Source: a virus. From it: DNA of 64,000 nt. The notes under the pieces were generated by a model, which ran no database searches, had not been told where the DNA came from, and was given only the letters and a program-made list of their open reading frames with translations. Location of the stretch: IMG/VR virus record IMGVR_UViG_3300042301_003793; one strand, 5' to 3'. Shown in pieces: positions 13,360 to 52,907 of this stretch. Position 1 is the first letter of the stretch. Each line of letters starts with the position of its first letter. The translations under genes were made by a program, and so were the position numbers.

Positions 13360-13927
13360 AAAATGTAAAGAAGAAAAAGAAATTTGTGAGTTCTATAAGG
13401 ATAGAAAATCAAAAGACAGTAAAAGGTCAAGATGTAAAAAATGTTTAAATTTACAAAACACTTTATATGTTAAAAAAAATAAAGATAGAGTTAACTCTAT
13501 TAAACAAAAATATGTTGATAATAACAAAGAAAAAGTAAAACAAAGTAAAAAAGAATGGTTTGATAAAAATCCTAACTATAGAAATGAATGGACTATTAAT
13601 AATTATAAAAATGATTTTCTTTTCAGATTAGTCAATATAATGAGAGCAAGAACAAGACTTTTTTTAAAATCAAAAAATATTAGGAAGAAAAACAATACAT
13701 TTGAAATCGTAGGGTGTTCACCTGAATTTTTAAAAGAATATATTGAAAAGCAATTTACTAAAGGTATGAATTGGGAGTTATTTGGTAGTCACATACATAT
13801 TGACCACATAATCCCATTATCTTTTGCAAAAACAGAAGAAGAAACATATAAACTTTGTCATTATACAAATCTCCAACCACTTTGGGCTGAAGATAATTTA
13901 AAAAAAAGTAATAAAATTTTAAATTAA
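13340..13927 (+). CDS. Free-standing HNH-type (homing) endonuclease with N-terminal Zn-finger
   Basis: CKKC...CKKC; HIDHIIPL...HYTNLQPLWAEDNLKK. Confidence 0.8.
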   Translation: METKICKKCKEEKEICEFYKDRKSKDSKRSRCKKCLNLQNTLYVKKNKDRVNSIKQKYVDNNKEKVKQSKKEWFDKNPNYRNEWTINNYKNDFLFRLVNIMRARTRLFLKSKNIRKKNNTFEIVGCSPEFLKEYIEKQFTKGMNWELFGSHIHIDHIIPLSFAKTEEETYKLCHYTNLQPLWAEDNLKKSNKILN

Positions 13928-15585
13928 CTTTCTTTTCTTAATTCTTTAGAATAATGATCAAAGCGTTCATGCTCAACTGGTGTTAATAATAACAAACCAC
14001 CCCTTAATTGATTTTTCTTTGTTAATTGGTAATGATGACTCATCCAAGTATTTTCAAAAGGGTGTGTCCATTTTGTATCCAAAAACATTTTTTTATTACC
14101 TTCTTGACTTATAATATGTGTCCAATTACAATAGTATATTTCACCATCAACATATGGTAATCCTTTATGTGACATTATATTATTAAACTTGGTTTTTGGT
14201 ACATTTGGTTCTAATCCATTGGTTGGTAAATTGGGTTTTTCAGGAAAATACTCATTTCTTTTTTCTTGTGGTAGGTTATACCAGGGCCAACAAGTCCCGT
14301 TGTCACCGTAAAATTCACTATAATTTATTTTGAGAAATTCAAAATCTTCTTTATCCATTATTTCAAAACACTTGTTAAATAAATTTGGTGTGTATCTATT
14401 AAATCCGTTTTTACAAGTTTCATCTGGTTTATTTTGGAAAAACATATCATCCTCTGACCACCACATATATTGTAAATCCGTGTTAGCAAAATGTTCGGCA
14501 ACAAATTGTCTTCCACCACAAATACCCAAATTATTCTTCTTAATGTGTTCAAAACCATATTCATCACATAACTCTTTATACCTTGGTGTTGTTGAAAGAT
14601 CTGTTGAGTTATCAAGTAAATATTTTTTTGTTTTATGTATAAAATTTGGGTCATAACCCAACATTGATTTTATTAAAGTTTCAAATTGTTTTGGTGAGTT
14701 AAACGTGATTACATATAAACCAATATCTCCTTTATATTTTGTTACAACTTTTTTTCCCTTATTTTTAATTACAACCGTATTATTTTTTACGTCTTCAAAA
14801 AATTTATATACCAAACCATTTGATTCTATTTCACAATAATCAATCATTGATGGATAAAGATAAGTCATAATTGTAAAAATACTCTCTTCGGTACCCATTA
14901 AATTTTTATTTAATGTATCAATAAGTAATTGGTAATATAAAACATTTAAGTCAGCAATTTTTTGTTTTGTTCCACCAAAAAATCCACCTCTTGAGACAAA
15001 CTCTGTTTTTGTTTTTGCGTAGTCACACATTTTTTTATAATCAAATCCGTGCACTTCGTTTTCCGCTTCATAAGGAAAAACAACAAACATAAATTTATCA
15101 AATAAACTTTCTATTTTATCTAATACATTATCACGAGTAAAATACCCAAGATTAACCGTGTTAGTTAATCCAGCGTCTATCCAGTAAAGTTTTTCGGAAT
15201 TAAAAGGATCCAAAATAGAAGCGTCGTGTAGTAAAAACATTTTGGACATTACAAGTGGATTGTAATATTCTAATCTTGCTTGTGTTGATTCTTTTAACCA
15301 ACCAGAAATATTATACCAATTTTCATTTGTTCTTATTTTTTGGATTTTATCAAAGTATTCGTTATTTCTAAACCAAGATAAATCCCTATTGATAAATTTT
15401 GTATTAGTTGGGTTTCTATATTTGAATACAAATTCTTCTAAGTGGTTATCACCAAAAATAATTAAATTACAATCTATTTCTAAAAGTTCTTTAAATTTTT
15501 CTAAATAATAATCAAAAGATCTATTCCATCCTTCATTAAGATTACCCCTTCCAATATCCCAAAGACCTGTAACAAGTGTTATCAT
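13924..15585 (-). CDS. HtrL/YibB-like domain fused to a GT-A (GT2-like) domain
   Basis: TLVTGLWDIGRG and YWIDAG (HtrL-like); second half LYVITFN...WWSEDD GT-A pattern. Confidence 0.6.
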   Translation of the reverse strand: MITLVTGLWDIGRGNLNEGWNRSFDYYLEKFKELLEIDCNLIIFGDNHLEEFVFKYRNPTNTKFINRDLSWFRNNEYFDKIQKIRTNENWYNISGWLKESTQARLEYYNPLVMSKMFLLHDASILDPFNSEKLYWIDAGLTNTVNLGYFTRDNVLDKIESLFDKFMFVVFPYEAENEVHGFDYKKMCDYAKTKTEFVSRGGFFGGTKQKIADLNVLYYQLLIDTLNKNLMGTEESIFTIMTYLYPSMIDYCEIESNGLVYKFFEDVKNNTVVIKNKGKKVVTKYKGDIGLYVITFNSPKQFETLIKSMLGYDPNFIHKTKKYLLDNSTDLSTTPRYKELCDEYGFEHIKKNNLGICGGRQFVAEHFANTDLQYMWWSEDDMFFQNKPDETCKNGFNRYTPNLFNKCFEIMDKEDFEFLKINYSEFYGDNGTCWPWYNLPQEKRNEYFPEKPNLPTNGLEPNVPKTKFNNIMSHKGLPYVDGEIYYCNWTHIISQEGNKKMFLDTKWTHPFENTWMSHHYQLTKKNQLRGGLLLLTPVEHERFDHYSKELRKES

Positions 15586-16826
15586 AAATCACCAATTAAT
15601 CTATCACACCAACCTTTTGATTTTGAATGTGGCCAAACAACCCAATATTTCGGTTTTTCTTTTGCGTTAAACTCCCTCCATATTTTTCCATAACCGTCGG
15701 CGTCTGTTTTTATTCTTTTGATTTCTTCTTCTTGTGCGTCCATACGATATATTGTTTCATCTTTATCGTTATGAAATGCAACAACTAAAAAATCATAATC
15801 GTCTTCTGGTATTTTATCTAATGGAATATCTATACAATGTTTGAATATTCTTAAAAAACTTTCTTTCCATTCTTTATCATTTTTATAATCATAAGGATTT
15901 GGTGGATAGTTTTTATCTATTGTATATTGTTGTACGGATCTTTTTTCAAAAAGAACACCGGCGTATTTTTCATAATCACGTATTGTTCTTTCTTTTCCAA
16001 AACCATATTTTAATTTTCCTTTAAATTTTTCACCGTCAACACCTAATACTTTTCTATTTTTACTATGTGAACTTTCATTTTTCTTATACCATACGCTATC
16101 ATCATCCCACTGTTTTGTTCTACCTTTTCTTGTGTACTCGTGATAAATTACAATTTTATGTGGATGGAATAAATCATATCCGTGAGTATAAGCTCTAACA
16201 GCAATTGATATTTCTTCTCCGTGAAAATAATATTCTGGGTCGTGTTGAACTTCTATTGAAAATTCACCTAATGTAAAACAGAAATGTGCCGAATAAAATC
16301 TTGCTGGGATTGGTTTTTTTAATTCTTGCCAACCTGGTATTACTTCTGGTAAAAAGAAAACAACACCTTCTGGTGTAAATCTATCAAATACCATTCTCCA
16401 GGGTTCTGTAACTCTTCCTTGTGGGTCGTTGTCTGGATCAAAAGATGAAACATAACCGGTAAGAAGTGGTTTTTTATAACCATCTTCTTGTAATTCTTTT
16501 AACATATTAATTAATGTCTCATCCCAATTTTTTTCAAAACGCATATGAGAATCTAATTGTAACGTGTATGTTTCACCACTATATAATTGTTGTACTTGAT
16601 GTCTTGCCCAACACACACCAGTGGACGCTGTGTAGACAATATCTAAAATTCTAAATCTATCATCACTCTCATATTCTGAAAGGTCATCAAAACCATCTTC
16701 TGGGTGATATTGTCTTGCAATCCCCAATCTTAAATTTTCTGGGTATTTTGCTTTGTTCAACATATCTTTAATTGTTGGTATAAGCTGGGGGTCTCGATAA
16801 GAGGCTATTTGTACAAATATTGTCAT
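15582..16826 (-). CDS. GT60-like polypeptide/hydroxyproline N-acetylglucosaminyltransferase
   Basis: IFVQIASYRDP, GVCWAR, LQLDSHMRF, FHGEEISIAVRAYTHGYD motifs. Confidence 0.8.
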   Translation of the reverse strand: MTIFVQIASYRDPQLIPTIKDMLNKAKYPENLRLGIARQYHPEDGFDDLSEYESDDRFRILDIVYTASTGVCWARHQVQQLYSGETYTLQLDSHMRFEKNWDETLINMLKELQEDGYKKPLLTGYVSSFDPDNDPQGRVTEPWRMVFDRFTPEGVVFFLPEVIPGWQELKKPIPARFYSAHFCFTLGEFSIEVQHDPEYYFHGEEISIAVRAYTHGYDLFHPHKIVIYHEYTRKGRTKQWDDDSVWYKKNESSHSKNRKVLGVDGEKFKGKLKYGFGKERTIRDYEKYAGVLFEKRSVQQYTIDKNYPPNPYDYKNDKEWKESFLRIFKHCIDIPLDKIPEDDYDFLVVAFHNDKDETIYRMDAQEEEIKRIKTDADGYGKIWREFNAKEKPKYWVVWPHSKSKGWCDRLIGDL

Positions 16827-16842
16827 AGTTAGTTAAAAATAA

Positions 16843-17061
16843 CTAACACTGATAAAAATTAAATATTTCACAATCGTTTGAATCGATAAGTTTTACAAGT
16901 AGCGAACCAACGTTATTTAATGGGGGTGGAACCTCAAAGGTATATGCGGAAATGTATGTTCCGCCGGAAACTAAATAACAATAAGTGTTTGTGACATCAC
17001 AAACATACACATCGTATGGTGGTGTTCCAGTGGTTCCAGATATTGTAATTTCGTGTAACAT
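16843..17061 (-). CDS. Small Cys-containing hypothetical (possibly virion) protein
   Basis: 72-aa ORF tightly packed in the operon. Confidence 0.6.
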   Translation of the reverse strand: MLHEITISGTTGTPPYDVYVCDVTNTYCYLVSGGTYISAYTFEVPPPLNNVGSLLVKLIDSNDCEIFNFYQC

Positions 17062-17062
17062 A

Positions 17063-17581
17063 TTAACTACATATAGGACTTAATGTTGGTGTAGGTGTAT
17101 TAGTCGGTGTATTTGACGGTGTAGGTGTATTAGTCGGTGTATTTGACGGTGTAAAATTTGGAGGCAACGGAGTAACACACAAGTCCCAAGTAGGAGTTGG
17201 TGTAGGTGTTGGTGTTGCAGTTGTTGTTGCCGTCGGAGTATTTGTAGGTGTAGGAGTCTGCGTTGGTGTTGGTGTGTTAGTAGGAGTCTGCGTTGGTGTT
17301 CTAGTAGGTGTTGGAGTTGGTGTTCTAGTAGGTGTATTTGTTGGAGTTGGTGTAGGTGTTGGCCTTGGTACATTTAAAAAGTTTGTACAATTACCACCAT
17401 CTGTTGATATTGTATATGTCCCATAAATTTCTTGTTGGGGTGTTAATAAATCTGGTTGAAAAGTGTATGGAAGTATAACAGAACCAATATTTATTGTAAT
17501 AGTACTATTATCTGGTTTGAATAATATTTGAGCAGGTTCACCGCTAAAATTTACACTTTGTATTGTAATTATCTGACTCAT
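17063..17581 (-). CDS. Thr-Pro-rich mucin-like protein
   Basis: About half the protein is [14 protein letters not shown] repeats; TATTTAT motif upstream. Confidence 0.7.
17088..17153. repeat. Exact 30-bp tandem duplication in the PT tract
   Basis: GGTGTAGGTGTATTAGTCGGTGTATTTGAC at 17088-17117 and 17118-17147, plus a partial third copy. Confidence 0.9.
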
Positions 17582-17612
17582 TGTATTTTTTTATAAATAC
17601 AATCAAACAGAC

Positions 17613-17816
17613 TTATTTTTTAATTTTAATGTATTTGAACCAAACTCTTTCGTGTAAAAAATAAATAATTGGTTTTAATATTAATTCACCTAAACCTAAT
17701 AAAGAAGATATTTCTACTGACGCCCCAAGACAATATGCGACTACAACTGTGGTGATTGTCCCAAAAATTCTATAAGAAATTGTTTTTAATAAATGTCTTT
17801 TTAAGTCTGACTTCAT
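17613..17816 (-). CDS. DUF2061-like small membrane protein
   Basis: RHLLKTISYRIFGT...YFLHERVW pattern; two hydrophobic segments. Confidence 0.7.
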   Translation of the reverse strand: MKSDLKRHLLKTISYRIFGTITTVVVAYCLGASVEISSLLGLGELILKPIIYFLHERVWFKYIKIKK

Positions 17817-17817
17817 T

Positions 17818-18273
17818 TTAATTTTTTTCCAATATCAATAAAACATCATCTTGTATGATTGGGTCAACTAATTTTTTCCAGTAATCATCTTTATTTTTTA
17901 TACAATTTCTAATACCAGTTGCAGAAATCCCACCAATTTCTTTTGGTGGTGTAAATTCATTTACTTCATATCCAACACCGCGACCAAAATTAACAGATTC
18001 AATATCTGGAATAATGATAACTTTAACATCATCACCTTTTGATTTATGGTACTTCTCAATCATAGAAACTGTTTGTTCTGTTGTAAAAGGATTTTTTTCA
18101 TCAGGTTCAATATCTCTAATCATAATTAAAACTGGTACTCCTTCATTTAATTTTTGTTGGATTAACTCAATGTGACCAAAATGATAAGGTTGATAACGAC
18201 CTACAAAAACTGCATACTTTTTACTTTCGTTATTTGTTGGATTTCCTCCGTGGTTTTTCTTTTCCCAACTCAT
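17818..18273 (-). CDS. HxGH nucleotidyltransferase (cytidylyltransferase/NMNAT-like fold)
   Basis: GRYQPYHFGH, NPFT, ISATGIR motifs. Confidence 0.8.
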   Translation of the reverse strand: MSWEKKNHGGNPTNNESKKYAVFVGRYQPYHFGHIELIQQKLNEGVPVLIMIRDIEPDEKNPFTTEQTVSMIEKYHKSKGDDVKVIIIPDIESVNFGRGVGYEVNEFTPPKEIGGISATGIRNCIKNKDDYWKKLVDPIIQDDVLLILEKN

Positions 18274-18725
18274 ATGTGTTTAATTATTTCGTTTAATGAT
18301 TCTTGTGGATTAACACCTGTTGTATTAATATCAACAAAATTTTCTGATGGTTGTTCATACTCATCTGTATGGAAATGTTCTCTGCCTCTAATGTCTGTTG
18401 TATGAACATAAAACTCAACTAATAAATTTTGTAAATCATATTTAAAACTTTCTCTTAATTCTTTGTAAGGTGCAACAAGACTTACAATTACATCGTATCC
18501 TTGTACTAATAAAAATTTTGCAATGTCTTGAGCTCTTTTGATGTTTTCTTCTCTACCTTCTCTACCGTATTTTTGGTTATTGAAAAGTCTTCTTAATTCA
18601 TCACCGTCAATATGGAATACTTTATTTCCATATTCTTTTTCTAAAATTGTTTTTAACATTGTCGCTAATACAGTTTTACCAGCTCCTGGTTGTCCTGTAA
18701 ACCAATAAATCTTTTTTTCTTTCAT
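18270..18725 (-). CDS. cysC: Adenylyl-sulfate kinase (start probably 18725)
   Basis: WFTGQPGAGKT P-loop, IDGDELR, SLVAPY, YEQPSE. Confidence 0.85.
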   Translation of the reverse strand: MKEKKIYWFTGQPGAGKTVLATMLKTILEKEYGNKVFHIDGDELRRLFNNQKYGREGREENIKRAQDIAKFLLVQGYDVIVSLVAPYKELRESFKYDLQNLLVEFYVHTTDIRGREHFHTDEYEQPSENFVDINTTGVNPQESLNEIIKHI

Positions 18726-18727
18726 AA

Positions 18728-19546
18728 TCAAAAATAACCGAATTGGTCGTAAAACCATTGATGTTTTTGTTTTATCCAGTTACAAGCTGGTGTTCCAAGA
18801 ACTTCTTTATAATCTAATTTTAATGGTTCAATTTTAGATTTAATATTATGGTCACCATAAATTCCATAAACAGAATCATCTTCTTGTGTTATTTGTGTAA
18901 CATTATCAAAGTCGTGTTCAAAGTATGGTAACTCAAGATATTTATAAATTCTTTCCATTTCTTTTTTTGGATTTGAAGTGAAGTCTTCGAATTTAACAAA
19001 TAACATTTTATGATTAATACCTTCTTTGAAGATTTGATAAAGTCTTTCGACAGCCAAACCAACTGGTTGTGATTGTGACCAAATATCAATTCTTTTTTCT
19101 GTTGTAGTTCCTTGCATTTGCGCGTGATTAACAACACCAGAATCCATATGTTGACTCTTTCTAAAATTCTTTTCCATTGAGGCAAAGATTCCACGTAAGT
19201 CTCTTACCATACAAATAATCTTTGGTTCTGGATAAAAAGAATTTAAAAACCCATAATGAATACCCCAACCTCTACTTTTATCTAAAACATATGGTTTATC
19301 TGTTACACCATTAAAAAAACCTAACATACCTTGATTACAAAAGTTTAGAAAACCTTGTTTCATTAATTCTGAATCTTGTGCTTTAAACTCAGGTGATGAA
19401 GTGTAGTTTGCTCTTGCAGCATAAACTAATTCTAAAACACCAGATGTTGGTGTTACGTAAAACTCTGGATTTTGTCCCATAACATTTTGAAGTAATGTTG
19501 ATCCAGCTCTTGGTAATGAACTTTGGAAAAATATTTTTTCTACCAT
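18728..19546 (-). CDS. PAPS-dependent sulfotransferase
   Basis: SSLPRAGSTLL (5'-phosphosulfate loop) and VRDLRGIFAS (3'-phosphate motif). Confidence 0.85.
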   Translation of the reverse strand: MVEKIFFQSSLPRAGSTLLQNVMGQNPEFYVTPTSGVLELVYAARANYTSSPEFKAQDSELMKQGFLNFCNQGMLGFFNGVTDKPYVLDKSRGWGIHYGFLNSFYPEPKIICMVRDLRGIFASMEKNFRKSQHMDSGVVNHAQMQGTTTEKRIDIWSQSQPVGLAVERLYQIFKEGINHKMLFVKFEDFTSNPKKEMERIYKYLELPYFEHDFDNVTQITQEDDSVYGIYGDHNIKSKIEPLKLDYKEVLGTPACNWIKQKHQWFYDQFGYF

Positions 19547-19549
19547 AAT

Positions 19550-20434
19550 TTAATTTTTTAGTGTTTCTATTATTTCGTTTATATTAAAGATGTTTGTATC
19601 AAATAAAGGACATTCGTGTATTGTACCATTAAAGTTGTAATCAAATAAGTAACTATCTGGTAACTTAACTGTTGTTGGTAGTTCTGCTATAATGTTTGTG
19701 TGTAATGGATAACCAAATACTTTTGGTGATGTACCAATCCACAATATGGTTGATGGTAGACCCATAGCAGCTGCCGCATGTTGTAAACAAGAATCAATTA
19801 ATAATCTTTTTTGAGCATAAGCTAATAATGAAAATAATTCCATATTAGACATAGGTTCTACGTGAGCCTCAACATTTTGTAAAACATTTGTTTGGTCTCT
19901 ACAAATTTGAATTATGTGATAATATTGTGAAAAGTGGTCAACAATTTTTTGAGCAACATCAAAAGGAATATCCCTTGTCCAAGAATATGGATATGGCTGT
20001 TCTTGTAATGGACCACCGTTTGTTTGAATGACCATTACAGGTTTTTCTCTTTTCCATTTATTAAATGCAACTTGTTGTTGTCTTAAATTAAATGAAAGTG
20101 ATGGCATTTCACCGTTATATTCTAAACCAAAAAGTTTACACCAATTCATAATTAATGGTAACTTTTTTTGGATATGGTCTGTTGTAAAATAAGGTTCGTG
20201 TTTAAAAATTAAACTATCTTTATCTTTAATGTAATCATCATAAAAATATGGTGTCATACCAATTCTATATACTCTATCAATAAAATCTAAATTTAAAAAT
20301 ATTTCTGGGTAAGCACAGACAATAATTAATTCCCTATCTGGGTGATTGTTTTTTATACATTTTGCAACAGCAGTTGATAGAACGTGTTTTCCTAAACCAC
20401 CTTCTAAATGAAATATACTATATTTTTTTTCCAT
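19550..20434 (-). CDS. GT9-like (GT-B) glycosyltransferase
   Basis: EGGLGKHVL and IDSCLQHAAAAMGLPSTILW motifs. Confidence 0.65.
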   Translation of the reverse strand: MEKKYSIFHLEGGLGKHVLSTAVAKCIKNNHPDRELIIVCAYPEIFLNLDFIDRVYRIGMTPYFYDDYIKDKDSLIFKHEPYFTTDHIQKKLPLIMNWCKLFGLEYNGEMPSLSFNLRQQQVAFNKWKREKPVMVIQTNGGPLQEQPYPYSWTRDIPFDVAQKIVDHFSQYYHIIQICRDQTNVLQNVEAHVEPMSNMELFSLLAYAQKRLLIDSCLQHAAAAMGLPSTILWIGTSPKVFGYPLHTNIIAELPTTVKLPDSYLFDYNFNGTIHECPLFDTNIFNINEIIETLKN

Positions 20435-20450
20435 AATAAGATTATAATTT

Positions 20451-21368
20451 TTAATTTTTGTTAGTAAAGATAATTGCTTCGTTAATCTTATCTATTACCA
20501 TTTTTGGTTTTATTTTTGTGTGACATTCGTTTTCTCTTTCTGTTCCTAAAAATATTGGACATTTAGTTTTTATATTTGGAAACATATTAAAACATCCATT
20601 ACAAACATAAGGGTTTGTGACTCTAAAACAATCAAATTCGTTTTGACTTTTTGTAAAATTTGAAATCATAACAACTGGTACGTCATAGGCCCAAGCAAGC
20701 CAAGAAAGACCTGAAGATAAACCAACAAAGAACCTTGAACTAACAATATGGTCAATTGCAACATTTAAATCATCGTGACCGTGAAAACCAATAACATTTT
20801 CTAAATTCATTGTATTTTCATAAGAAATGTTATAAACGTTGTAACCTACATTATGTAATGAATTTACAATTGTTTGCCAACCCTCATTCCCATTATATTT
20901 CCATTGTGAAATTTCTTTAATTGTTTCTGGACCCATAGTAATTTTATTTGGGTCTATTGTTCTTAGTTTTGGAATTACTGGACATTTACCTGGTTTTGTT
21001 TCTTGCGGTAATCGCATTGTATCTTTAGCAGCATAAAACATACCACCTAAAGTGTGTGCCATATTATTTTTATCATAACCAACATCAACTAGTTTATCAA
21101 TTTCTAAAAAACCACTTTCATTTGCGTTAATAAACTCATAGTCTGGTCTATTTGATTTTAATAGGTGTGGAAAAAAAGTTGTAACCCAAACGTACTTTGG
21201 TTTGTGATAATCCATAAAAGCATCCATCAAAGATGAAAAACAAATTGTATCACCTAAACAAAATGAGTCAAAGTGTAATAATAATTCTTTTCCTTCAAAG
21301 GTTTCTAAGTTTGGCTCTCTTTCTTTATAGTTCATCAACTCAGAATTGTCGTAATGTCTTTTAACCAT
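20451..21368 (-). CDS. TibC/Aah (BAHT)-like autotransporter heptosyltransferase homologue
   Basis: CLGDTI, FFVGLSSGLSWLAWA..VPVVMISNFT, and iron-finger-like CNGC..CP..EC. Confidence 0.75.
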   Translation of the reverse strand: MVKRHYDNSELMNYKEREPNLETFEGKELLLHFDSFCLGDTICFSSLMDAFMDYHKPKYVWVTTFFPHLLKSNRPDYEFINANESGFLEIDKLVDVGYDKNNMAHTLGGMFYAAKDTMRLPQETKPGKCPVIPKLRTIDPNKITMGPETIKEISQWKYNGNEGWQTIVNSLHNVGYNVYNISYENTMNLENVIGFHGHDDLNVAIDHIVSSRFFVGLSSGLSWLAWAYDVPVVMISNFTKSQNEFDCFRVTNPYVCNGCFNMFPNIKTKCPIFLGTERENECHTKIKPKMVIDKINEAIIFTNKN

Positions 21369-22104
21369 TTTTATATTTTAAAAGTTTAGAGTAATATTCA
21401 AACCAATATCTTTCTTGCCAGATTGTACCTTCTTCCAAATACACCAATGGTTTTTGTTGCCAAGGTTTTTTTACAATGTAGTGTAAAATTTTAATATGTT
21501 TTGGTAGTCCTGTATTTTTGAATATTTCTTTTGAATATGTTTTTAAGTAATTATATGATACTGGTATTTCAGTTATTTCATCATAAAAATAATTATTAAT
21601 AATATCTTGGTCCAGATGTTCTGTAATCCCATATATTGTTGTAAGATGTATTAAATCATCTGTTATTTTTTCAGATAAATATTTTTTTGAGATAACAAGA
21701 ACACCTGTGTTGTATTGGTCAATATATAAATCTCTAACACCACCAATATCACCATCAAAATCAATTAGATAATCAATGTTTCCTAAAATAACAACATCTG
21801 AATCTAAAAATATAATTTTGTTAAATTCAGTTAATGAAAAAATTTCATATTTAGTATAATCACCAAAAGACATTTGTTTTTCTTTTAGTTTTTCTATTTC
21901 AGAATATTTTTCGGTGTCAAATCTTTTTATGTGTATATTATTGTACATTCTTCTTGAGGCGACTAAATCTTCTGGTGTTAAATCATTTGTGATGATTACA
22001 AATGGTAATTTTTCACTAACAACTCTTGGGTTATTATCTATTAACGATTTTAACATTACCTCAAATCCTATAAGATAATCTTTATTACATACAGTTACAA
22101 ACAT
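21361..22104 (-). CDS. GT8 glycosyltransferase (glycogenin-like)
   Basis: YTKYEIF, IIFLDSD, YNTGVLV, DQDIIN, HYIVKKPW. Confidence 0.85.
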   Translation of the reverse strand: MFVTVCNKDYLIGFEVMLKSLIDNNPRVVSEKLPFVIITNDLTPEDLVASRRMYNNIHIKRFDTEKYSEIEKLKEKQMSFGDYTKYEIFSLTEFNKIIFLDSDVVILGNIDYLIDFDGDIGGVRDLYIDQYNTGVLVISKKYLSEKITDDLIHLTTIYGITEHLDQDIINNYFYDEITEIPVSYNYLKTYSKEIFKNTGLPKHIKILHYIVKKPWQQKPLVYLEEGTIWQERYWFEYYSKLLKYKNG

Positions 22105-25435: not shown

Positions 25436-25436
25436 A

Positions 25437-32818: not shown

Positions 32819-32870
32819 CTTTTTTATTAATAAATACAACAATTCAAAGTATTTATATTAAAACTATTTT

Positions 32871-35766: not shown

Positions 35767-35795
35767 TTGATATTTTAATTAAATATGGGTATATT
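35767..35795 (+). promoter_or_regulatory. Possible sigma70-like promoter for the large glycosylation operon
   Basis: TTGATA (35767-35772), 17 nt, TATATT (35790-35795), immediately after the terminator. Confidence 0.45.
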
Positions 35796-35814
35796 TTTTC
35801 TTATAAAATTAATT

Positions 35815-44105: not shown

Positions 44106-44107
44106 AA

Positions 44108-44632: not shown

Positions 44633-45564
44633 AAATATTAATAACTGGTGGTGCTGGTTTTATTGGTACCAAAATTTGTAATAAATTAAAAGAAAGTTTT
44701 GAAATAATTGTTTTAGATAATTTTTCAGAACAGGTACACGGTAATGAAAAACCAAAGTTACTTGAAGGTGTTGAATACGTTTTTGGCGATGTTACAAATA
44801 TTGATGACTGGAAAAAGGTTATATCAAAAAACCCAGACTATATTATTCATCTGGCGGCAGAAACTGGTACTGGACAATCTATGGATGAAATCACTAGATA
44901 TGTTAATACCAATGTTGTAGGAACTTCAGTTATGTTAGAATTTTTAAACAAAAATGAAAATAATGTAAAAAAAATAATTCTATCATCAACAAGGGCAGTT
45001 TATGGTGATTTGGAAAATAACTCTGAAACATCAATAGTCGACCCAAAATCTGTTTATGCTGTAACAAAACTTGCTCAAGAAAACTTAATAAAAACATCAA
45101 GTAAAGTTCCTTATACAATTTTAAGATATCAAAATGTTTTTGGTGATGGGCAAAGTTTAAATAACCCGTACACTGGTATCATAAGTATTTTTAGTAATTT
45201 ATTTTTAGAGAATAAATCGGTTACGATATTTGATAATGGAATACCGACAAGAGATTTTATTTATGTTGAGGATGTTGTAGATGTAACAATAAAATGTTTA
45301 GAAAACACCTCAACTAATTATAAAACATATGACGTTGGTACTGGGACTGAAATAAAAATTTTAGATGTTACACATAAACTAAAAAAATTGTCTAATAGTA
45401 CATCTGAAATTATAATAACTGATTACCATAGAGATGGTGATATAATGTTTGCTAAAGCTAACACAACAAAAATAAAAACTGATTTAAATTGGGAACCAAA
45501 ATTTACAATTGAAGATGGGTTAAAATTTTTTTATAATTGGTTTAAAGCGGAAAAAAATTTATGA
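44629..45564 (+). CDS. NAD-dependent epimerase/dehydratase (extended SDR)
   Basis: ITGGAGFIG, HLAAETGTGQSM, YAVTK, RDFIYVEDV. Confidence 0.85.
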   Translation: MKILITGGAGFIGTKICNKLKESFEIIVLDNFSEQVHGNEKPKLLEGVEYVFGDVTNIDDWKKVISKNPDYIIHLAAETGTGQSMDEITRYVNTNVVGTSVMLEFLNKNENNVKKIILSSTRAVYGDLENNSETSIVDPKSVYAVTKLAQENLIKTSSKVPYTILRYQNVFGDGQSLNNPYTGIISIFSNLFLENKSVTIFDNGIPTRDFIYVEDVVDVTIKCLENTSTNYKTYDVGTGTEIKILDVTHKLKKLSNSTSEIIITDYHRDGDIMFAKANTTKIKTDLNWEPKFTIEDGLKFFYNWFKAEKNL

Positions 45565-46469
45565 AAATATTAATAACTGGTGGTAGTGGTTTAGTTGGTA
45601 ACAACTTAAAAAAATATCTCCCAGATGGTATTTATCTTTCCTCAAAAGATTATGATTTAACAAAAGAATCGGATGTAATTAGTATGTTTGAAAATCATAA
45701 ACCAAATGTTGTAATTCATTTAGCGGCAAAGGTTGGTGGTATTTTAGACAACATAAATAAACCAGCAGAATATTTTACAGAAAATGTTTTAATGAATACT
45801 TTATTAATTGAGTATGCAAGAAAATATAATGTAGACAGATTTATTGGGATTTTGAGTACTTGTATCTTTCCAGATATTATGGAATCCTACCCGATGAAAG
45901 AAACAGATTTACACTTTGGCCCACCAACAAGTACTAATTTTTCATATGGGTATGCAAAAAGAAGTATGGCAGTACAAATAGATGCGTACAACAAACAATA
46001 TGGTACAAAATATCAATACTTAATTCCTTGTAATTTATATGGGTTAGGTGATAAAGACCACGAATCTAATAGTCATTTTATTACAGCATTGGTTAAAAAA
46101 ATTTTTATAGCAAAACAAAATAATGAAAAACATATAACCTTATTTGGTGATGGTACACCATTAAGACAGTTTATGTTTGCCGATGATTTTGCAAAAATAA
46201 TATATGAAGTAATTACCAAAAATATTTATGAAAATTTTAATATTGCCGGTAATGAAAATTTAACAATAAAAAAAATGGCTGAAATTGCTTTAGACTCTTG
46301 TGATGCCAAAGATTTGGAAATAAGGTGGGATTTAACAAAACCAAATGGTCAATATAGAAAGGATGTTTGTACAAATAAATTAAAATCTTTACTAGCAGAA
46401 TTTGAACCATTATCCTTATCTCAAGGAATAAAATTAGTTTATAAAAGTTATTATGATAAAGTTAGTTAA
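45561..46469 (+). CDS. fcl: GDP-L-fucose synthase / ColC-like epimerase-reductase
   Basis: ITGGSGLVG, HLAAKVGGI, LSTCIFP, YGYAKR, PCNLYG, GDGTPLRQF. Confidence 0.85.
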   Translation: MKILITGGSGLVGNNLKKYLPDGIYLSSKDYDLTKESDVISMFENHKPNVVIHLAAKVGGILDNINKPAEYFTENVLMNTLLIEYARKYNVDRFIGILSTCIFPDIMESYPMKETDLHFGPPTSTNFSYGYAKRSMAVQIDAYNKQYGTKYQYLIPCNLYGLGDKDHESNSHFITALVKKIFIAKQNNEKHITLFGDGTPLRQFMFADDFAKIIYEVITKNIYENFNIAGNENLTIKKMAEIALDSCDAKDLEIRWDLTKPNGQYRKDVCTNKLKSLLAEFEPLSLSQGIKLVYKSYYDKVS

Positions 46470-47604
46470 CGACACAATAAATAAAGAAGATATTAATGCT
46501 CTAGTTGAATGGTTATCTCAAGATGAAATACCTAGATTAACTAAGGGTGATTTAACATTAAAGTTGGAGGATTTATGGGCGAAAAAAATTGGAACAAAAT
46601 ATTCTGTATTTGTTAATTCTGGATCTTCCTCAATACTTCTTGCCCTTGCCGCACTTAAGTATTCAAATAAATTAAAGAATGAAAAAGTTGTTGTTCCAGG
46701 TTTGAGTTGGGCAACAGATGTTAGTTCACCAATGTTACTTGGTATGCAACCAATTATGTGTGATTGTAATTTAGATGATTTATCTTGTGATTTAGAAAAT
46801 CTAGAACAAATCTTTAAAACAGAATCACCATCGACACTAATATTAGTGTCGCCATTAGGGTTAGTACCAGATATGGAAAAAATAGTTTCAATGTGTGAAA
46901 AATATGATGTTATATTATTGGAAGATGTTTGTGAAAGCATGGGATCTAAACACAAAGAAAGATATTTAGGTTCTTTTGGTTTTGCATCATTTTTTTCAAT
47001 GTATTTTGGTCACCATTTAAGTACTATTGAAGGTGGGTTTATCAACACAAATGATGAAGATTTTTACCACACATTACTAATGATGAGAAGTCACGGTTGG
47101 GATAGAGATTTACCAAAAGAAAAACAAATCGAATTAAGACAAAAATATAATGTGGATGATTTTGATTCTTTGTATAATTTTTATTTACCAGGTTTTAATT
47201 TGAGGTCAACAGACTTACAAGCGTTTATTGGTTTAAGAGCTATTGAAAAATTGGATGGGTATTCAAAAAGAAGAAATCAAAACTTTTTTGAGTATAGAAA
47301 TAATATTAAAATAAACGAACTTACAATACCAATTAATGAAACTAATTTTATATCAAATTTTGCATATCCAATTGTATCATTAAATAAAAAAGAAATTGTT
47401 AGTAGGTTAATTGAAAATGGTGTTGAGGTACGTCCTTTGATTGCTGGTAATATGTCAAATAAACCTATGTGGTATGAAAACTATGGGCTTGTTAGTTTAC
47501 CAAATTGTGAAAAAGTAAATGAGTATGGTTTTTATATTCCAAACCACCAAAATCTTACATCAGAAGAAATAAACTTTATTTGTAAAATAATTAATAATGC
47601 ATAG
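46453..47604 (+). CDS. colD: ColD-like GDP-4-keto-6-deoxymannose 3-dehydratase (PLP enzyme, His at the Lys position)
   Basis: LLEDVCESMG, SMYFGHHLSTIEGG, MRSHGWDRDLP, LPGFNLR, EVRPLIAGN. Confidence 0.7.
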   Translation: MIKLVNDTINKEDINALVEWLSQDEIPRLTKGDLTLKLEDLWAKKIGTKYSVFVNSGSSSILLALAALKYSNKLKNEKVVVPGLSWATDVSSPMLLGMQPIMCDCNLDDLSCDLENLEQIFKTESPSTLILVSPLGLVPDMEKIVSMCEKYDVILLEDVCESMGSKHKERYLGSFGFASFFSMYFGHHLSTIEGGFINTNDEDFYHTLLMMRSHGWDRDLPKEKQIELRQKYNVDDFDSLYNFYLPGFNLRSTDLQAFIGLRAIEKLDGYSKRRNQNFFEYRNNIKINELTIPINETNFISNFAYPIVSLNKKEIVSRLIENGVEVRPLIAGNMSNKPMWYENYGLVSLPNCEKVNEYGFYIPNHQNLTSEEINFICKIINNA

Positions 47605-48376
47605 ATTATATAAACCCGCCAGGTCTAAAGAGGCAAACAGAGGTTTATTTTCATATCTAACAGAATCTGTGTTAAATATGGTAAACTTTATTAAGTTAAA
47701 TGGGGACGTTGATATAAAATATTATCACGATTTGTTTGATATACCGGGTTACGGAAATAAAAATATGTTTGACATCTCTTTATTTCAAGACGAAAATGAT
47801 TTTAAAGTAAATAATCATCTTTACACAAATATAGAATTGTTTCCAAACGATTTAAACCTTGATTGTTATAATGTAGAAAACCTTAATCAGGATATTAGAT
47901 TGATAAGTGAAAAAATAATCAAAGATTTTTTTATACCTAATGAAACTTTAAATGAATTATTTAATAAAAGACATAGTCAAATTAACTTTAATACAACCGT
48001 TGGGGTTCATAGGAGATCAACAGATATTTGGAGTCACTATAAAATTGTAAACATAGAAGATATTTTTAATGAGGTTGAGTCTAATGAATTTGATAATGTT
48101 TTTTTAATGTGTGATAACATTTATGACACCAATAAATTTAAACTAAGATATGGGAATAAGCTAATAACTTATGATATGTTTACTTCCAAAAATATGATTT
48201 TACCTTTTTTTAAAATAAATAACCCAATTGAAGATATCCATAATCATATTATGGAGTTACTATTCGGAGTTTTTACGTTATCTAAAACAAAAAATTTTAT
48301 ATGCACAAAATCTAACATTTCTTCTTTTTGTATTTTATCTAATTCTAAATTAAACTATAAATTACTTACTAAATGA
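47597..48376 (+). CDS. NodZ/O-fucosyltransferase-like GT-B protein
   Basis: VGVHRRSTD, FLMCDN, FICTKSNIS. Confidence 0.6.
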   Translation: MHRLYKPARSKEANRGLFSYLTESVLNMVNFIKLNGDVDIKYYHDLFDIPGYGNKNMFDISLFQDENDFKVNNHLYTNIELFPNDLNLDCYNVENLNQDIRLISEKIIKDFFIPNETLNELFNKRHSQINFNTTVGVHRRSTDIWSHYKIVNIEDIFNEVESNEFDNVFLMCDNIYDTNKFKLRYGNKLITYDMFTSKNMILPFFKINNPIEDIHNHIMELLFGVFTLSKTKNFICTKSNISSFCILSNSKLNYKLLTK

Positions 48377-49374
48377 AAATAGCGCTTATAACAGGAATAA
48401 ATGGACAGGATGGTTCATATCTAGCAGAATTTTTGCTTAATAAAGGGTATGAAGTACACGGAACTTTAAAAAGAAATTCAGTTTCTGAAAACCAAACATC
48501 AAGACTTGATGATATTTATGACCAACTAAAATTACATTATGCTGATTTAACAGATTTGTCATCTTTAATTAATGTTATACAAAAAACAAAACCAAACGAA
48601 ATTTATAATTTGGCAGCACAATCACATGTTCGTATTTCATTTGACCAACCAATATATACTGCAAACGCTACTGGTTTAGGAACATTGAATATGTTAGAAG
48701 CAATTAAACTTGTTGACCCAACAATTAAGTTATACCAAGCGTCTTCTTCTGAAATGTTTGGAAACAATATTGATGAAGACGGATACCAAAGGGAATCAAC
48801 ACCGATGTCTCCAGTATCACCTTACGGATGTGCAAAAGTATTTTCATATAACATTTGTAGAAACTATAGAAATTCTTACAATATGTTTATATCAAATGGA
48901 ATTTTATTTAATCACGAATCACCAAGACGTGGAACAAACTTTGTAACAAATAAGGTTTGTAAGGAAGCGGTAAAAATTAAACTAGGTTTATCAAACCAAT
49001 TAAAACTTGGTAATTTAGATGCTACAAGAGATTGGGGACATGCAAAAGATTATGTTGAGGCAATGTGGATGATATTACAACAAGATGTTCCAGACGATTT
49101 TGTTTGCTCAACAGGGATTTCTCACTCAGTAAAAGAACTTGTTGAATATGTGTTTAATAAGTTAGAGTTAGACTGGAAAAAATATTTAACAATTGATGAA
49201 AAATTTTATAGACCCGAAGAACTTTCCGATTTGAAGGGTGACTCAAAAAAACTAAGGGATATCACCGGGTGGACACCGACGTATACGTTCGAAACAATGC
49301 TAGACGAGATGATAGACTATTGGCTAAACAAACTAAAAAAAGACTATGACCAGAAAGAAAGTTACACAGAATGA
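48373..49374 (+). CDS. gmd: GDP-mannose 4,6-dehydratase
   Basis: ALITGINGQDGSYLAE, YQASSSEMFG, SPYGCAK, LFNHESPRRG, RDWGHAKDYV. Confidence 0.93.
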   Translation: MKIALITGINGQDGSYLAEFLLNKGYEVHGTLKRNSVSENQTSRLDDIYDQLKLHYADLTDLSSLINVIQKTKPNEIYNLAAQSHVRISFDQPIYTANATGLGTLNMLEAIKLVDPTIKLYQASSSEMFGNNIDEDGYQRESTPMSPVSPYGCAKVFSYNICRNYRNSYNMFISNGILFNHESPRRGTNFVTNKVCKEAVKIKLGLSNQLKLGNLDATRDWGHAKDYVEAMWMILQQDVPDDFVCSTGISHSVKELVEYVFNKLELDWKKYLTIDEKFYRPEELSDLKGDSKKLRDITGWTPTYTFETMLDEMIDYWLNKLKKDYDQKESYTE

Positions 49375-51030: not shown

Positions 51031-51037
51031 AAAAAGT

Positions 51038-52099
51038 ATGAATACCGAACAGATAAAAAAATTAGAAAAAGCGGTTCAAAGTATGAAGGACAAAAAATCT
51101 AGATTGTATTTTGTTGTCCAAGATACCAAAGGAAACGCAAAAGGTTCAGTTAGACTGACTTATCAAATTGCAATGACGTTAAAAAAGAATGGTTATAATC
51201 CAATCATCCTTCACGAAAACAAAGAATATATTGGTGTTGCTGAATGGTTAGGCGAAAACTATATGTCAGAACTACAACACAAATCAATAGATGATGGTAA
51301 TTTAGAAATTTCACCAGATGACATTCTTATCATCCCTGAAATTTTTGGTTACATTATGGACCAAGTTAAAAAATTACCTTGTGGTAAAGTTGTATTAGCA
51401 CAAGCTTATGACCATATTTTTGAAACGTTGCAACCAGGTGAGAACTGGCAACAACTTGGGTTTTTTAAATGTATAACAACTTCTGAAACTCAGAAAAAAT
51501 ACATTGAGCAATTTATGAGAAAAGTTTCATTTGAAATTATTGAGCCAGTAATTAGCGAGTGTTTTGTAAAAAATGAAAAACCAGCAAAAACTATTATTTC
51601 TATTCATTCAAGAGATCAAAGAGATACTGTTAATTTAATTAAACAGTTTTATGTTAAATTCCCACAATATAGATGGATTACATTTAGAGATTTAAGAGGT
51701 CTTACAGAAAATGAATTTGCTCAAGCACTAAAAGAAAGTTTTGTTTCTGTTTGGATTGATCAGACAAGTGGTTTTGGTACTTTCCCACTAGAATCTATGA
51801 AATCTGGTGTTCCTGTAATCGGTATGTTACCTCACTTACAGCCAGAATGGTTAAACGAAGATAATGGAATTTGGTTAGCAAACAAAAATTCATTGGTTGA
51901 GGTTATTGCTGATTTCACACAAAATTGGTTAGAAGATAACTTAAACCCAGAACTTTTTGAAGCTATGGATAAAACAGTTAGTAAACATTCTGACTTGGAT
52001 AAATTTGAACATAATGTTTTAAGTGTTTTTTCAGAAATGATTGAAACAAGAATGAAAACATTCGAAGAACAACTAAATAAATTTGAAACAATTGATTAA
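51038..52099 (+). CDS. GT-B (GT4-like) glycosyltransferase
   Basis: ILIIPE..G; GFGTFPLESMKSGVPVIG. Confidence 0.65.
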   Translation: MNTEQIKKLEKAVQSMKDKKSRLYFVVQDTKGNAKGSVRLTYQIAMTLKKNGYNPIILHENKEYIGVAEWLGENYMSELQHKSIDDGNLEISPDDILIIPEIFGYIMDQVKKLPCGKVVLAQAYDHIFETLQPGENWQQLGFFKCITTSETQKKYIEQFMRKVSFEIIEPVISECFVKNEKPAKTIISIHSRDQRDTVNLIKQFYVKFPQYRWITFRDLRGLTENEFAQALKESFVSVWIDQTSGFGTFPLESMKSGVPVIGMLPHLQPEWLNEDNGIWLANKNSLVEVIADFTQNWLEDNLNPELFEAMDKTVSKHSDLDKFEHNVLSVFSEMIETRMKTFEEQLNKFETID

Positions 52100-52100
52100 T

Positions 52101-52907
52101 ATGGAAAGTAAAAATACAATATCGGTTATATTACCAATAAAGTCTGGTAAAGCAATAGACTTTGAAGAATTTTTTGAAAAGGCAATAACTTCAGTAAAAA
52201 ACCAAGAAGGTTTAGTTAGTGAATTAATAATTGTACACGTAGGTGAAGATTATTTTAGAAATTATGTTTCTGCTTTTGATTTTGGAGACATAAATGTATT
52301 CATCGAAGAATATGATGGTACTCCTAGTTTTGCAAACCAGGTTAATTACGGTGTAAGTAAAGCGACATCTGAATGGGTTTCTATTTTAGAGTTCGATGAT
52401 GAATATTCAAATATATGGTTTAAGAACGCAAAAAGTTATATGGATATCTATGGTGATGTTGACGCTTTTTTACCAATTGTTGTTGATGTAGATTATAAAG
52501 GTGTTTTTGTTGGGTTTACTAATGAGGCAACTTTTGCCGCAAACTTCTCAACTGAAATGGGATACTTAGACAATGAAACTCTACTTACATATCAAAACTT
52601 TCAAATATCTGGAATGGTGATAAGAAAAAAATCTTTTGTTGATTTTGGAATGTTAAAAGACTCATTTAAGTTAACATTTGGATATGAGTTCTTATTAAGA
52701 ATGACTAATAACAACGTTAAAATTATGACGATTCCAAGAATTGGTTATAAACATATGAACTTAAGAGAGGGGTCAATTTTCTGGAACTACAAAAATAGTG
52801 ACGATAGATTGTCTGAAGATGAGGTAAAATTTTGGATTGATTCAGCTAAAAAAGAATATCTATACATCAAAGAACGAGATATAAAATATGAACCACAAGA
52901 AGTTTAA
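52101..52907 (+). CDS. GT2-like glycosyltransferase (start probably 52101)
   Basis: ISVILPI, VNYGVSKATSEWVSILEFDDEY. Confidence 0.7.
   Translation: MESKNTISVILPIKSGKAIDFEEFFEKAITSVKNQEGLVSELIIVHVGEDYFRNYVSAFDFGDINVFIEEYDGTPSFANQVNYGVSKATSEWVSILEFDDEYSNIWFKNAKSYMDIYGDVDAFLPIVVDVDYKGVFVGFTNEATFAANFSTEMGYLDNETLLTYQNFQISGMVIRKKSFVDFGMLKDSFKLTFGYEFLLRMTNNNVKIMTIPRIGYKHMNLREGSIFWNYKNSDDRLSEDEVKFWIDSAKKEYLYIKERDIKYEPQEV

Follow-up and report, generated by a model that had tools for sequence, protein, structure and literature searches.

What does a phage glycosylate when its genome carries more than a dozen glycosyltransferase (GT) genes? This question is raised by a 64,000-nt stretch of DNA, here called the window, from the IMG/VR virus record IMGVR_UViG_3300042301_003793, in which positions 13924 to 52907 contain GT genes accompanied by genes for nucleotide-sugar synthesis, methylation, acetylation and sulfation. 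An earlier note on this DNA had proposed a two-cluster system that decorates the virion with glycans. Our analysis points to virion or phage-protein glycosylation as the best reading of the locus, and we give it an even chance of being right: the system would be layered, phage-encoded and cytoplasmic, and its primary acceptors would be the phage's own proteins. Lineage-core GTs (a GT60-like enzyme and an HtrL/GT2 fusion, a tandem GT-A enzyme, and a GT-B/GT2 pair) would prime phage proteins, the likely acceptors being a pair of small-domain proteins that bear mucin-like Thr/Pro tails and whose genes directly precede that of the GT60 enzyme, together with the Thr/Pro tracts of fibre-region proteins. 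The glycan would afterwards be diversified by islands that vary between strains. One of these would contribute GDP-fucose/GDP-colitose, fucosyltransferase-type GTs and methyl and acetyl transferases, while the other would provide sulfation dependent on 3′-phosphoadenosine 5′-phosphosulfate (PAPS), GT8 and GT9-like enzymes, and a TibC-like enzyme that, by analogy with Aah/TibC, may act on Ser residues of the adjoining beta-roll fibres. The sequences themselves show which gene families are present, how these are conserved, that genes for Thr/Pro-tailed proteins are syntenic with them, and that export genes are absent.

The comparison set comprised about 160 related viral contigs. Gene frequencies around the GT60 gene and around the PhoH gene were counted over 80 related loci each, and those of the two small domains upstream of the GT60 gene (p72 and tpN) over 58 distinct loci. 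Four near-complete relatives (G001-G004, 97-100% complete) were used, along with control genomes, for genome-wide family searches.

A conserved GT60/HtrL module is accompanied by genes for mucin-like proteins

The GT60-like gene (15582-16826, minus strand) encodes a firm member of PF11397 (E = 1e-70, 239.3 bits versus a cut-off of 21). It is adjoined by a second firm GT gene (13924-15585, minus strand), whose 553-aa product matches HtrL_YibB over residues 2-249 (PF09612, 5e-21) and is GT2-like in its C-terminal half, the latter by an atlas lead only. Characterised GT60 enzymes act on polypeptides, transferring GlcNAc from UDP-GlcNAc in alpha linkage to Ser, Thr or hydroxyproline. The claim that two protein-acting GT families occur in the region proved correct, since both PF11397/GT60 and a TibC/Aah-like enzyme (TIGR04414, 2.9e-34) are present. 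In the loci around the GT60 gene, the HtrL fusion is conserved in 78 out of 80, a 298-aa protein with a C-terminal TPTPTP tract visible in its translation (12212-13108, minus strand) in 71, and the family-B DNA polymerase (PolB) in 55. The variable component includes GT8, TibC-like, GT9-like, sulfotransferase, adenosine 5′-phosphosulfate (APS) kinase and nucleotidyltransferase genes, which are found in about 9-26 of these loci. An endonuclease VII/HNH-type gene (13340-13927, plus strand) lies on the opposite strand between the 298-aa gene and the HtrL fusion; its presence in only 6 of the 80 loci fits a mobile homing-endonuclease insertion.

Two small genes precede the GT60 gene on the minus strand. 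The first encodes the 72-aa protein p72 (16843-17061), a conserved domain that in relatives bears a Thr/Pro-rich tail. The second (17063-17581) is the Thr-Pro protein that had been noticed in the first cluster, and its translation indeed consists of a 73-aa N-terminal domain, tpN, followed by ∼100 aa of TPTPTP repeats, which makes it a candidate acceptor. Of the 58 distinct loci, 34 have the p72 domain. For 27 of these, the gene that encodes it is co-oriented with the GT60 gene and no more than 3 kb upstream, and it usually stops 20-72 nt short of that gene. The tails of p72 range in relatives from 0 to 2570 aa and reach a combined Thr and Pro fraction of at least 0.30 in 11 loci. The tpN domain, present in 18 of the 58, is always upstream of the GT60 gene and co-oriented with it, with tails of 28-842 aa whose Thr and Pro fraction is at least 0.30 (maximum 68%) in 12 loci. 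Neither p72 nor the Thr-Pro protein presents a signal peptide or a transmembrane segment. By eye the two domains look alike; BLASTP between them gave E = 2.8 and the p72 hidden Markov model (HMM) did not match tpN, and we treat them as two families. A conserved small domain carrying a mucin-like tail of variable length beside the GT60 gene is the best comparative evidence for a putative protein acceptor and, together with membership in PF11397, the basis on which the GT60-like enzyme is predicted to be a polypeptide GT.

Orthologs of the GT60-like protein, 45-49% identical, are encoded by cultured phages, namely the Xanthomonas phages XacN1 (ORF334) and Xoo-sp13 and the Stenotrophomonas phages CM1 and RAS14. 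For the HtrL fusion, full-length identity to XacN1 ORF330, and to the homolog of that ORF in Xoo-sp13, is 42.6%. In XacN1 and Xoo-sp13 both genes are located close to PolB, as in the window, with a carbamoyltransferase gene between them. XacN1 infects Gammaproteobacteria and has two annotated GTs, and its PolB is barely similar to that of the window, so that the two phages are distant relatives at best. The other glycan genes of the window had no tblastn match in the 19-kb stretches around the GT60 orthologs of XacN1-type phages, to which this search was confined. The host of the window, which belongs to a lineage of 30% G+C, is probably very different, and the maintenance of the GT60/HtrL pair in phages of such different hosts suggests that the acceptor travels with the phage; it argues that the acceptor of this pair may be phage-borne. 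XacN1 virions show at least two bands positive for periodic acid-Schiff (PAS) staining, which its authors attributed to ORF328/ORF334, and glycosylation of its virions by phage GTs was suggested in 2018 (PMC5852040). The GT60/HtrL pair is common to XacN1 and the window, and the virion staining is that of XacN1.

Lineage-core glycosyltransferases frame hypervariable islands

Searches against Pfam, NCBIfam, PDB sequences and structures counted 11 firm GT genes, 2 probable ones and 1 lead within 13924-52907, that is, 13-14 genes where about 14 had been claimed, and the HMM and structure searches that had been proposed as a check thus confirmed the inventory. None of the GTs of the window has a transmembrane segment, and sequence searches with the GT60-like, HtrL-fusion and GT9-like proteins found no relative of solved structure. 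The two-cluster layout was borne out only in part. Glycan genes do occupy two clusters, one on each strand, with ∼13 kb of fibre and unknown genes between them, but the second cluster is broken up by exonuclease, dUTPase and PhoH genes and by genes of no known family, and the whole is better described as a mosaic of conserved and hypervariable parts. Synteny across related jumbo phages, another check proposed, separated core GTs from variable islands and placed the Thr/Pro partners upstream of the GT60 gene. The architecture is therefore, as far as gene content tells, one of layers and not of two clusters: lineage-core GTs (the GT60 gene and HtrL/GT2 fusion, the tandem GT-A gene and the GT-B/GT2 pair, 5-6 GT genes in all) with hypervariable islands between them.

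The GT-B gene (51038-52099, plus strand; 353 aa; a profile of 23 homologs matches the glycosyltransferase of PDB 8xsg at 4e-14) and the GT2 gene (52083-52907, plus strand; 274 aa; PF00535, 2e-7), both firm, lie downstream of PhoH and were found in all 80 PhoH loci. A GT4-like GT-B gene (35785-37029, plus strand) is the conserved left flank of the island between dUTPase and PhoH, being present in every related locus that reaches that far; it is counted as probable, given that its matches to Glyco_transf_4 (N-terminal) and to Glyco_trans_1_4/Glycos_transf_1 (C-terminal) are in the right order and weak, below the gathering scores.

The tandem GT-A gene (38290-39813, plus strand; 507 aa) is also firm (PF13712, Glyco_tranf_2_5, 9e-27; PF00535, 2e-11). 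Homologs with 38-93% identity occur in 32 out of 32 islands with both borders, and it is the sole gene common to every island. An AlphaFold2 (AF2) model (predicted local distance difference test score, pLDDT, 73) contains two GT-A domains, so that two GT genes of the region are apparently two-domain, this one by its structural model and the HtrL fusion by lead only. Its nearest PDB entries are two-GT-A enzymes: K4CP (chondroitin polymerase), PmHS2 (heparosan synthase 2), LARGE1, LH3/ColGalT1 and Mimivirus R699, with E-values from 1e-11 to 1e-9 and a TM-score of only ∼0.26, a combination that places the similarity at the level of architecture. This is the domain layout of alternating-copolymer synthases (K4CP, PmHS2, LARGE1), and together with the sulfotransferase of the other island it raises the idea of a glycosaminoglycan-like product as a candidate.

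Located directly after the exonuclease and dUTPase genes, the 507-aa enzyme is also the main candidate for a different function, the glycosylation of DNA bases as a protection against restriction. DNA hypermodification is a well-known activity of phage GTs (Pyle et al. 2024, as cited in PMC12619734), the second domain of the enzyme weakly matches the TET-associated glycosyltransferase family (E = 0.004, below the cut-off), and the relatives encode an enzyme of the thymidylate-synthase family. The latter, however, passes the ThyA equivalog cut-off in G004 (331 versus 325 bits) and nearly does so in G001, indicating an ordinary ThyA and not a hydroxymethylase. The structural neighbours of the 507-aa enzyme are likewise polysaccharide and protein GTs, not DNA GTs. 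Moreover, we know of no fucose, colitose, sulfate or methyl tailoring on DNA glycans. A Tet/JBP domain was not found in the four near-complete relatives, a weak negative in that the control genomes had no match either. We consider DNA-base glycosylation very improbable.

A fucose/colitose island of changing content

The island at 39815-49374, entirely on the plus strand, starts with four firm GT genes: a GT7C/GT2-like gene (39815-40576; Glyco_transf_7C, 1e-7), a GT11 gene (40573-41340; 5e-30), a GT10 gene (41325-42083; 4e-8) and a GT2 gene (42080-42769; 1e-14). Two methyltransferase genes follow. The one at 43428-44105 is of the TylF O-methyltransferase type (8e-14), while that at 42766-43446 can be placed no further than among the generic class-I methyltransferases, its scores lying under the Pfam cut-offs, and of the two O-methyltransferases announced by the earlier note one is thus sustained as such. 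In the same way, the announced O-acetyltransferase is found as a hexapeptide acetyltransferase of the Vat/CatB-like type (44108-44632; 1e-45) whose predicted product may be O- or N-acetylated.

All the nucleotide-sugar genes that had been named (Gmd, Fcl/ColC, ColD and a short-chain dehydrogenase/reductase, SDR) were recovered by family and PDB matches. Gmd (48373-49374) passes the equivalog cut-off of TIGR01472 (417.7 versus 415 bits). Among PDB entries, the DegT-family gene at 46453-47604 matches E. coli O55 ColD best (2gms and 3gr9, 2e-58), and it keeps the His of the ColD catalytic site where related aminotransferases have Lys (GHHLSTIEGG versus SHHIATMEGG in ColD). The Fcl/ColC-like reductase (45561-46469) scores 199.5 bits with the Fcl model, whose cut-off is 500, and the SDR (44629-45564) is GalE/RmlB-like. 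This match does not tell Fcl from ColC, and the possible product would be GDP-fucose, GDP-colitose or both. The remaining gene (47597-48376; 259 aa) is a lead for a FUT8/NodZ/O-FucT-like GT that comes from language-model features alone.

Across relatives, the interval from dUTPase to PhoH ranges from 2.9 kb to more than 10 kb and changes in content. Gmd was counted in 35 of the 80 loci, the Fcl-like gene in 38, ColD in 15, GT11 in 20 and GT10 in 13. In one relative (L128, positions 1268-9941), the fucose/colitose set is replaced by WbqC-like, DegT-fragment, methyltransferase, hexapeptide acyltransferase, GH130-like, PhyH dioxygenase and GT2 genes. Judged by these families, the theme of the island is constant and its predicted chemistry varies.

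Such hypervariability in size and content resembles that of an O-antigen locus and brings in the main rival, a remodelling of the host envelope, in which the clusters, or at least the islands, would modify O-antigen, capsule or host glycoproteins during infection, resulting in a block to superinfection or in altered recognition by grazers and other phages. We consider this on the whole unlikely, though with appreciable weight. Gmd, ColD, the Fcl-like reductase, GT11, GT10, GT2 and GT8 are classic O-antigen/LPS (lipopolysaccharide) families, as is the WbqC of the relative just mentioned, and sulfotransferases are found in the same kind of cyanophage for which such a role has been proposed. On the other hand, 5-6 of the GT genes are lineage-core and not accessory, the GT60/HtrL pair is conserved across phages of very different hosts, and the GT60 and TibC-like families suggest protein acceptors. 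The host-modification reading of comparable phage islands, moreover, likewise comes without experiments in the phages concerned (PMC7029224, PMC7824862, PMC12801897).

A sulfation module and a TibC-like enzyme next to beta-roll fibres

The variable part of the first cluster, all on the minus strand, is contiguous with the GT60 module. It comprises an APS kinase (18270-18758; PF01583, 4e-19, 69.7 versus 21.1 bits) and a sulfotransferase (18728-19546; PF13469, 1e-19, 71.6 versus 27 bits; PF00685, 3e-11; weakly NoeE, 1e-5), present in only about 9 of the 80 loci. The PAPS/sulfotransferase module of the earlier note is thus confirmed in these two enzymes and lacks the third, since no ATP sulfurylase family was recognised in the window; APS is presumably supplied by the host. 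Downstream lie a 151-aa HxGH nucleotidyltransferase (17818-18273; CTP_transf_like, 5e-7; TIGR00125, 31.7 versus 27.7 bits; HFGH and ISATGIR motifs) and a 67-aa DUF2061 small membrane protein (17613-17816; PF09834, 4e-16) that was found in 10 loci, mostly with sulfation genes. Readings of the nucleotidyltransferase as a minimal ATP sulfurylase or an ADP-heptose-type adenylyltransferase were considered and not adopted, its matches being only generic HxGH and sub-threshold NMNAT (2.5e-13, far below the cut-offs). It co-varies both with the APS kinase/sulfotransferase genes and with the GT9-like/TibC-like genes, and in the relative L007 it accompanies GT9-like, TibC-like and GT8 genes alone; it could serve in nucleotide-sugar donor synthesis or in sulfate activation.

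Three GT genes complete the cluster: a probable GT9-like (heptosyltransferase-like) GT-B gene (19550-20434; PF01075, 4e-4, below the gathering score), a firm TibC/Aah-like gene (20451-21368) and a firm GT8 gene (21361-22104; PF01501, 2e-25), the last found in ∼9 of the 80 loci. Comparison of the GT9-like protein with the TibC-like family by hhalign gave a weak match (E = 3e-4, probability 39%). The TibC-like assignment combines the TIGR04414 match, the modelled fold and a Cys motif. The protein scores 118.6 bits with TIGR04414 (E = 2.9e-34, model positions 80-373 out of 374), and phmmer aligned it to TibC (1e-14) over residues 24-297 with four Cys in the arrangement C-x2-C ... C ... C. These residues (C256, C259, C270 and C282) are invariant in 14 homologs, and the predicted iron-finger loop has low pLDDT in the model. 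When the AF2 model (pLDDT 82) was compared by Foldseek, TibC (4rap/4rb4) was the best match (query-based TM-score, TMq, 0.74-0.77; E = 1e-17), while WaaC/WaaF/GT9 structures reached a TMq of 0.52-0.59. The enzyme is a shortened BAHT-like homolog, not an equivalog, and its modelled fold is closer to TibC than to the LPS heptosyltransferases.

Immediately upstream of these GT genes, two minus-strand genes encode Ser/Gly-rich, beta-roll fibre-like proteins of 1061 aa (22190-25375) and 1478 aa (25437-29873), whose translations show tens of S-T-V-S-G-G type repeats and which match the PF21300 beta-roll at 1e-7 and 4e-3, respectively. Both are candidate acceptors of the TibC-like enzyme. With a third beta-roll fibre, recognised by its translation on the other side of the cluster (9255-12164, minus strand), they substantiate the placement of the first cluster among Ser/Gly-repeat fibre genes. 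Beta-roll fibres were found in 4 of the 13 loci with a TibC-like gene versus 2 of the 45 without it (Fisher p = 0.019, for loci that are not phylogenetically independent). Further upstream, a 962-aa protein (29954-32842, minus strand) combines a Cys-rich middle with a short TPTPTP linker and ends in a papain-like peptidase (phrog_16701, 4e-55; PF00112, 3e-4) and may be a virion-associated enzyme.

The target of the glycans

The window contains no Wzx, Wzy/WaaL, Bac_transf or WecA-type gene, and its clusters contain no multi-pass membrane protein. Extending this search, PF02397, PF00953, PF01943 and PF04932 (Bac_transf, WecA-type, Wzx and Wzy/WaaL) had no match in any of the four near-complete relatives, while 9-13 control genomes were matched. 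The lack of an initiating transferase, a flippase, a polymerase and a ligase in the window and in these relatives speaks against host-envelope remodelling by a pathway of the phage's own. There is nevertheless a way in which the phage would not need these genes, namely if its GTs acted on lipid-linked intermediates of the host and used the host flippase and ligase, as the same rival supposes and as proposed for the LPS islands of cyanophages and pelagiphages.

Several observations weigh against glycosylation of the phage's own proteins. Soluble GTs can act on undecaprenyl-linked intermediates of the host with the help of host flippase and ligase, and the absence of export genes is not decisive; in addition, similar islands have been published as host-surface modification (PMC7029224, PMC7824862 and PMC12801897). 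Thr/Pro tracts are frequent throughout the fibre region of the relatives, with no more than a modest excess immediately before the GT60 gene, and could be plain linkers. As an assay, the PAS staining of XacN1 is weak, and its authors did not establish which proteins form the stained bands. The TibC-like protein does not reach the equivalog cut-off of 200 bits, is shorter than TibC by ∼100 aa and has no counterpart to the first ∼80 positions of the model. Its association with fibres is weak, coming essentially from one subclade, and neither ADP-heptose pathway genes nor an autotransporter were seen in the window. The grounds for every acceptor are indirect, and cluster 1 and cluster 2 are without a biochemical tie.

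This last point, together with the position of the clusters on opposite strands ∼13 kb apart and the quite different evolution of conserved and variable parts, would also agree with a mixed system. In it, the GT60/HtrL pair would act on mucin-like phage proteins, while the variable islands would serve the host surface, a released exopolymer or non-virion phage proteins freed at lysis, and no single two-cluster pathway would exist. A mixed system is less parsimonious than a single acceptor class, the sulfation/TibC-like island is physically contiguous with the GT60 module, and we regard it as improbable.

We therefore keep phage-protein glycosylation as the best reading, in which we infer all the acceptors, all donors besides the GDP-sugar intermediates, the virion location and the link between the clusters. 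In its boldest form, which we put forward as a doubtful proposal, the lineage would make its own mucins: docking domains with Thr/Pro tails of up to ∼2500 residues would be O-glycosylated in the cytoplasm by the GT60 enzyme, the strain-specific islands would add fucose/colitose, methyl, acetyl and sulfate groups, a minimal TibC-type enzyme would hyperglycosylate the beta-roll tail fibres in the manner of Aah/TibC on autotransporter adhesins, and the virion would carry a hypervariable glycocalyx under diversifying selection.

The window belongs to a lineage of uncultured jumbo phages

The window has a G+C content of ∼30% and densely packed genes. At the nucleotide level, the 22 kb of it that were searched against 50,697 phage records had no match. 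PHROG and Pfam searches identified genes for a helicase, PolB, endonuclease VII, an exonuclease, dUTPase, PhoH and a papain-like peptidase; the PolB shares no more than 23-28% identity with its counterparts from Salinibacter and Anabaena phages. Using the GT60-like protein as a query recovered 213 IMG/VR contigs (68-93% identity), some of them 290-322 kb long and 97-100% complete, and PhoH recovered several hundred. A tail-sheath domain was found in the four near-complete relatives checked, and it was used as the phage mark in place of Terminase_6C, which had no match in the relatives searched. The PHROG matches to helicase, PolB, endonuclease VII and peptidase, along with the sheath domain of the 290-322 kb relatives, agree with the assignment of the element to a phage. 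Public metagenomes hold more than 7000 clusters of the GT60-like protein at 90% identity, with PF11397 in all listed homologs, which indicates that the lineage is environmentally common. Overall, it is a lineage of uncultured freshwater-type jumbo phages of roughly 300 kb.

The Hc1 histone H1-like protein (PF07432, 4e-18 to 6e-21) is present in all four of G001-G004 (the records behind L022, L072, L038 and L041), and among 14 control genomes only in Bacteroides thetaiotaomicron. Moraphages are jumbo phages of aquatic environments, with genomes from about 200 kb up to 307 kb; Bacteroidota are their predicted hosts, and they have contractile-tail core genes, four core GT orthogroups and, in complete genomes, an Hc1-like PF07432 protein (Perez-Hernandez et al. 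2025, PMC12619734). The relatives of the window are alike in size (290-322 kb), Hc1, sheath domain and 5-6 core GT genes, and the lineage would fit these recently named phages in a comparison made by description and not by sequence. For moraphage glycan genes, possible roles were listed and nothing further was analysed (PMC12619734).

Several other features of the window are worth recording. A 698-aa protein (2500-4596, plus strand; 23 of 80 related loci) has a complete Fe/Mn superoxide dismutase (SOD) domain (PF00081, 2e-22; PF02777, 1e-38; residues 165-354) within long N- and C-terminal regions of unknown nature. The conserved block 52907-59230 had no match in Pfam, PHROG or the phage database; at 54039-55994 (plus strand) a 651-aa protein without family match, kept in 80 of 80 relatives, has three hydrophobic segments at residues 427-533. 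Another protein without family match (59880-62669, plus strand; 929 aa) gives a WD40-type beta-propeller signal at residues 446-587. Finally, the motif TATTTATA was rejected as an argument for late promoters, its 16 copies in the window comparing with 15 expected. Seven of the 16 (positions 670, 2488, 4607, 32850 and 57753, and 12177 and 17592 on the minus strand) are located 10-25 nt upstream of a start codon and in gene orientation, preceding the helicase gene, the SOD fusion, the gene at 4628, the fibre gene 9255-12164, the Thr-Pro gene and the genes at 32871 and 57773. TATTTATA looks like a putative promoter-like element common to replication and fibre genes.

Comparison with known systems

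GT/sugar islands of aquatic phages are routinely annotated as host-modifying LPS genes. The locus offers specific grounds for weighing an alternative, namely that the phage glycosylates proteins of its own: GT families of the protein-acting type, a mucin-tailed partner gene, the absence of export genes and a GT pair kept across different hosts. If true, a virion glycocalyx would have consequences for adsorption, for the stability of the particle, for its recognition by grazers and lectins, and for how viromics counts auxiliary metabolic genes of this type. Cultured XacN1-type phages, with their GT60/HtrL pair and PAS-positive virion bands, offer a tractable test system.

The statement that gene sets of this kind are little described in tailed phages was an overstatement. 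GT/nucleotide-sugar islands by fibre genes are known from cyanomyophages, pelagimyophages and jumbo phages, where they are described as hypervariable and read, without experiments, as modification of host O-antigen or capsule (PMC12801897, PMC7029224, PMC7824862). Cyanomyophage S-SCSM2R is listed there with 13 GTs including GT10 and GT11, and sulfotransferases are annotated in cyanophages S-SKS1, S-SRM01 and S-SCSM1. The window resembles these LPS/host-recognition-cluster islands (P-SSM2, S-SCSM1, S-SCSM2R; capsular polysaccharide modification systems of Iyer et al. 2021) in its GT10, GT11, GT2 and GT8 genes, nucleotide-sugar enzymes and HIGH-family nucleotidyltransferases located by tail-fibre genes of large aquatic myophages. 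It differs in that several GTs are core to its lineage, and in its GT60, TibC-like enzyme, ColD-type colitose branch and conserved mucin-like partner, which are not reported in the consulted parts of PMC12801897, PMC7029224 and PMC7824862.

The TibC-like enzyme shares its modelled fold and four Cys with Aah/TibC, the bacterial autotransporter heptosyltransferases (BAHT; TIGR04414; PDB 4rap/4rb4), and its gene adjoins genes for Ser-rich beta-solenoid proteins, in parallel to AIDA-I and TibA. It differs from them in being shorter and in occurring without an autotransporter and without ADP-heptose genes seen.

Glycosylation of phage virions has been described in mycobacteriophages (Freeman et al. 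2023, as cited in PMC12619734 and PMC12801897). There, structural proteins of the phage are modified in the cytoplasm by its own GTs, and no lipid carrier is involved, a likeness to what is proposed here. The mycobacteriophage system, whose hosts are actinobacterial, reportedly involves one to few GTs that modify capsid and tail-tube subunits at their C-terminal ends, and it is said to be without sugar-nucleotide synthesis, sulfation or mucin-like partners.

In giant viruses, the glycans of the chlorovirus PBCV-1 capsid and of the Mimivirus fibrils are made with virus-encoded Gmd, an Fcl-type reductase, many cytoplasmic GTs and methyltransferases. The window is similar in having Gmd, an Fcl-type gene, many GTs and methyltransferases, and Mimivirus R699 is among the structural neighbours of its tandem GT-A enzyme. 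The hosts of giant viruses are, in contrast, eukaryotic, their acceptor proteins are different, and the homology shown is that of shared enzyme superfamilies. Their glycans are attached to virion proteins independently of host membranes (Van Etten et al., as cited in PMC5852040). Taken together, the general phenomenon is known and the combination of modules is new: a core GT60/HtrL module whose mucin-like partner genes are conserved, a minimal TibC-type enzyme next to beta-roll fibres, a sulfation module and a ColD-type colitose branch.

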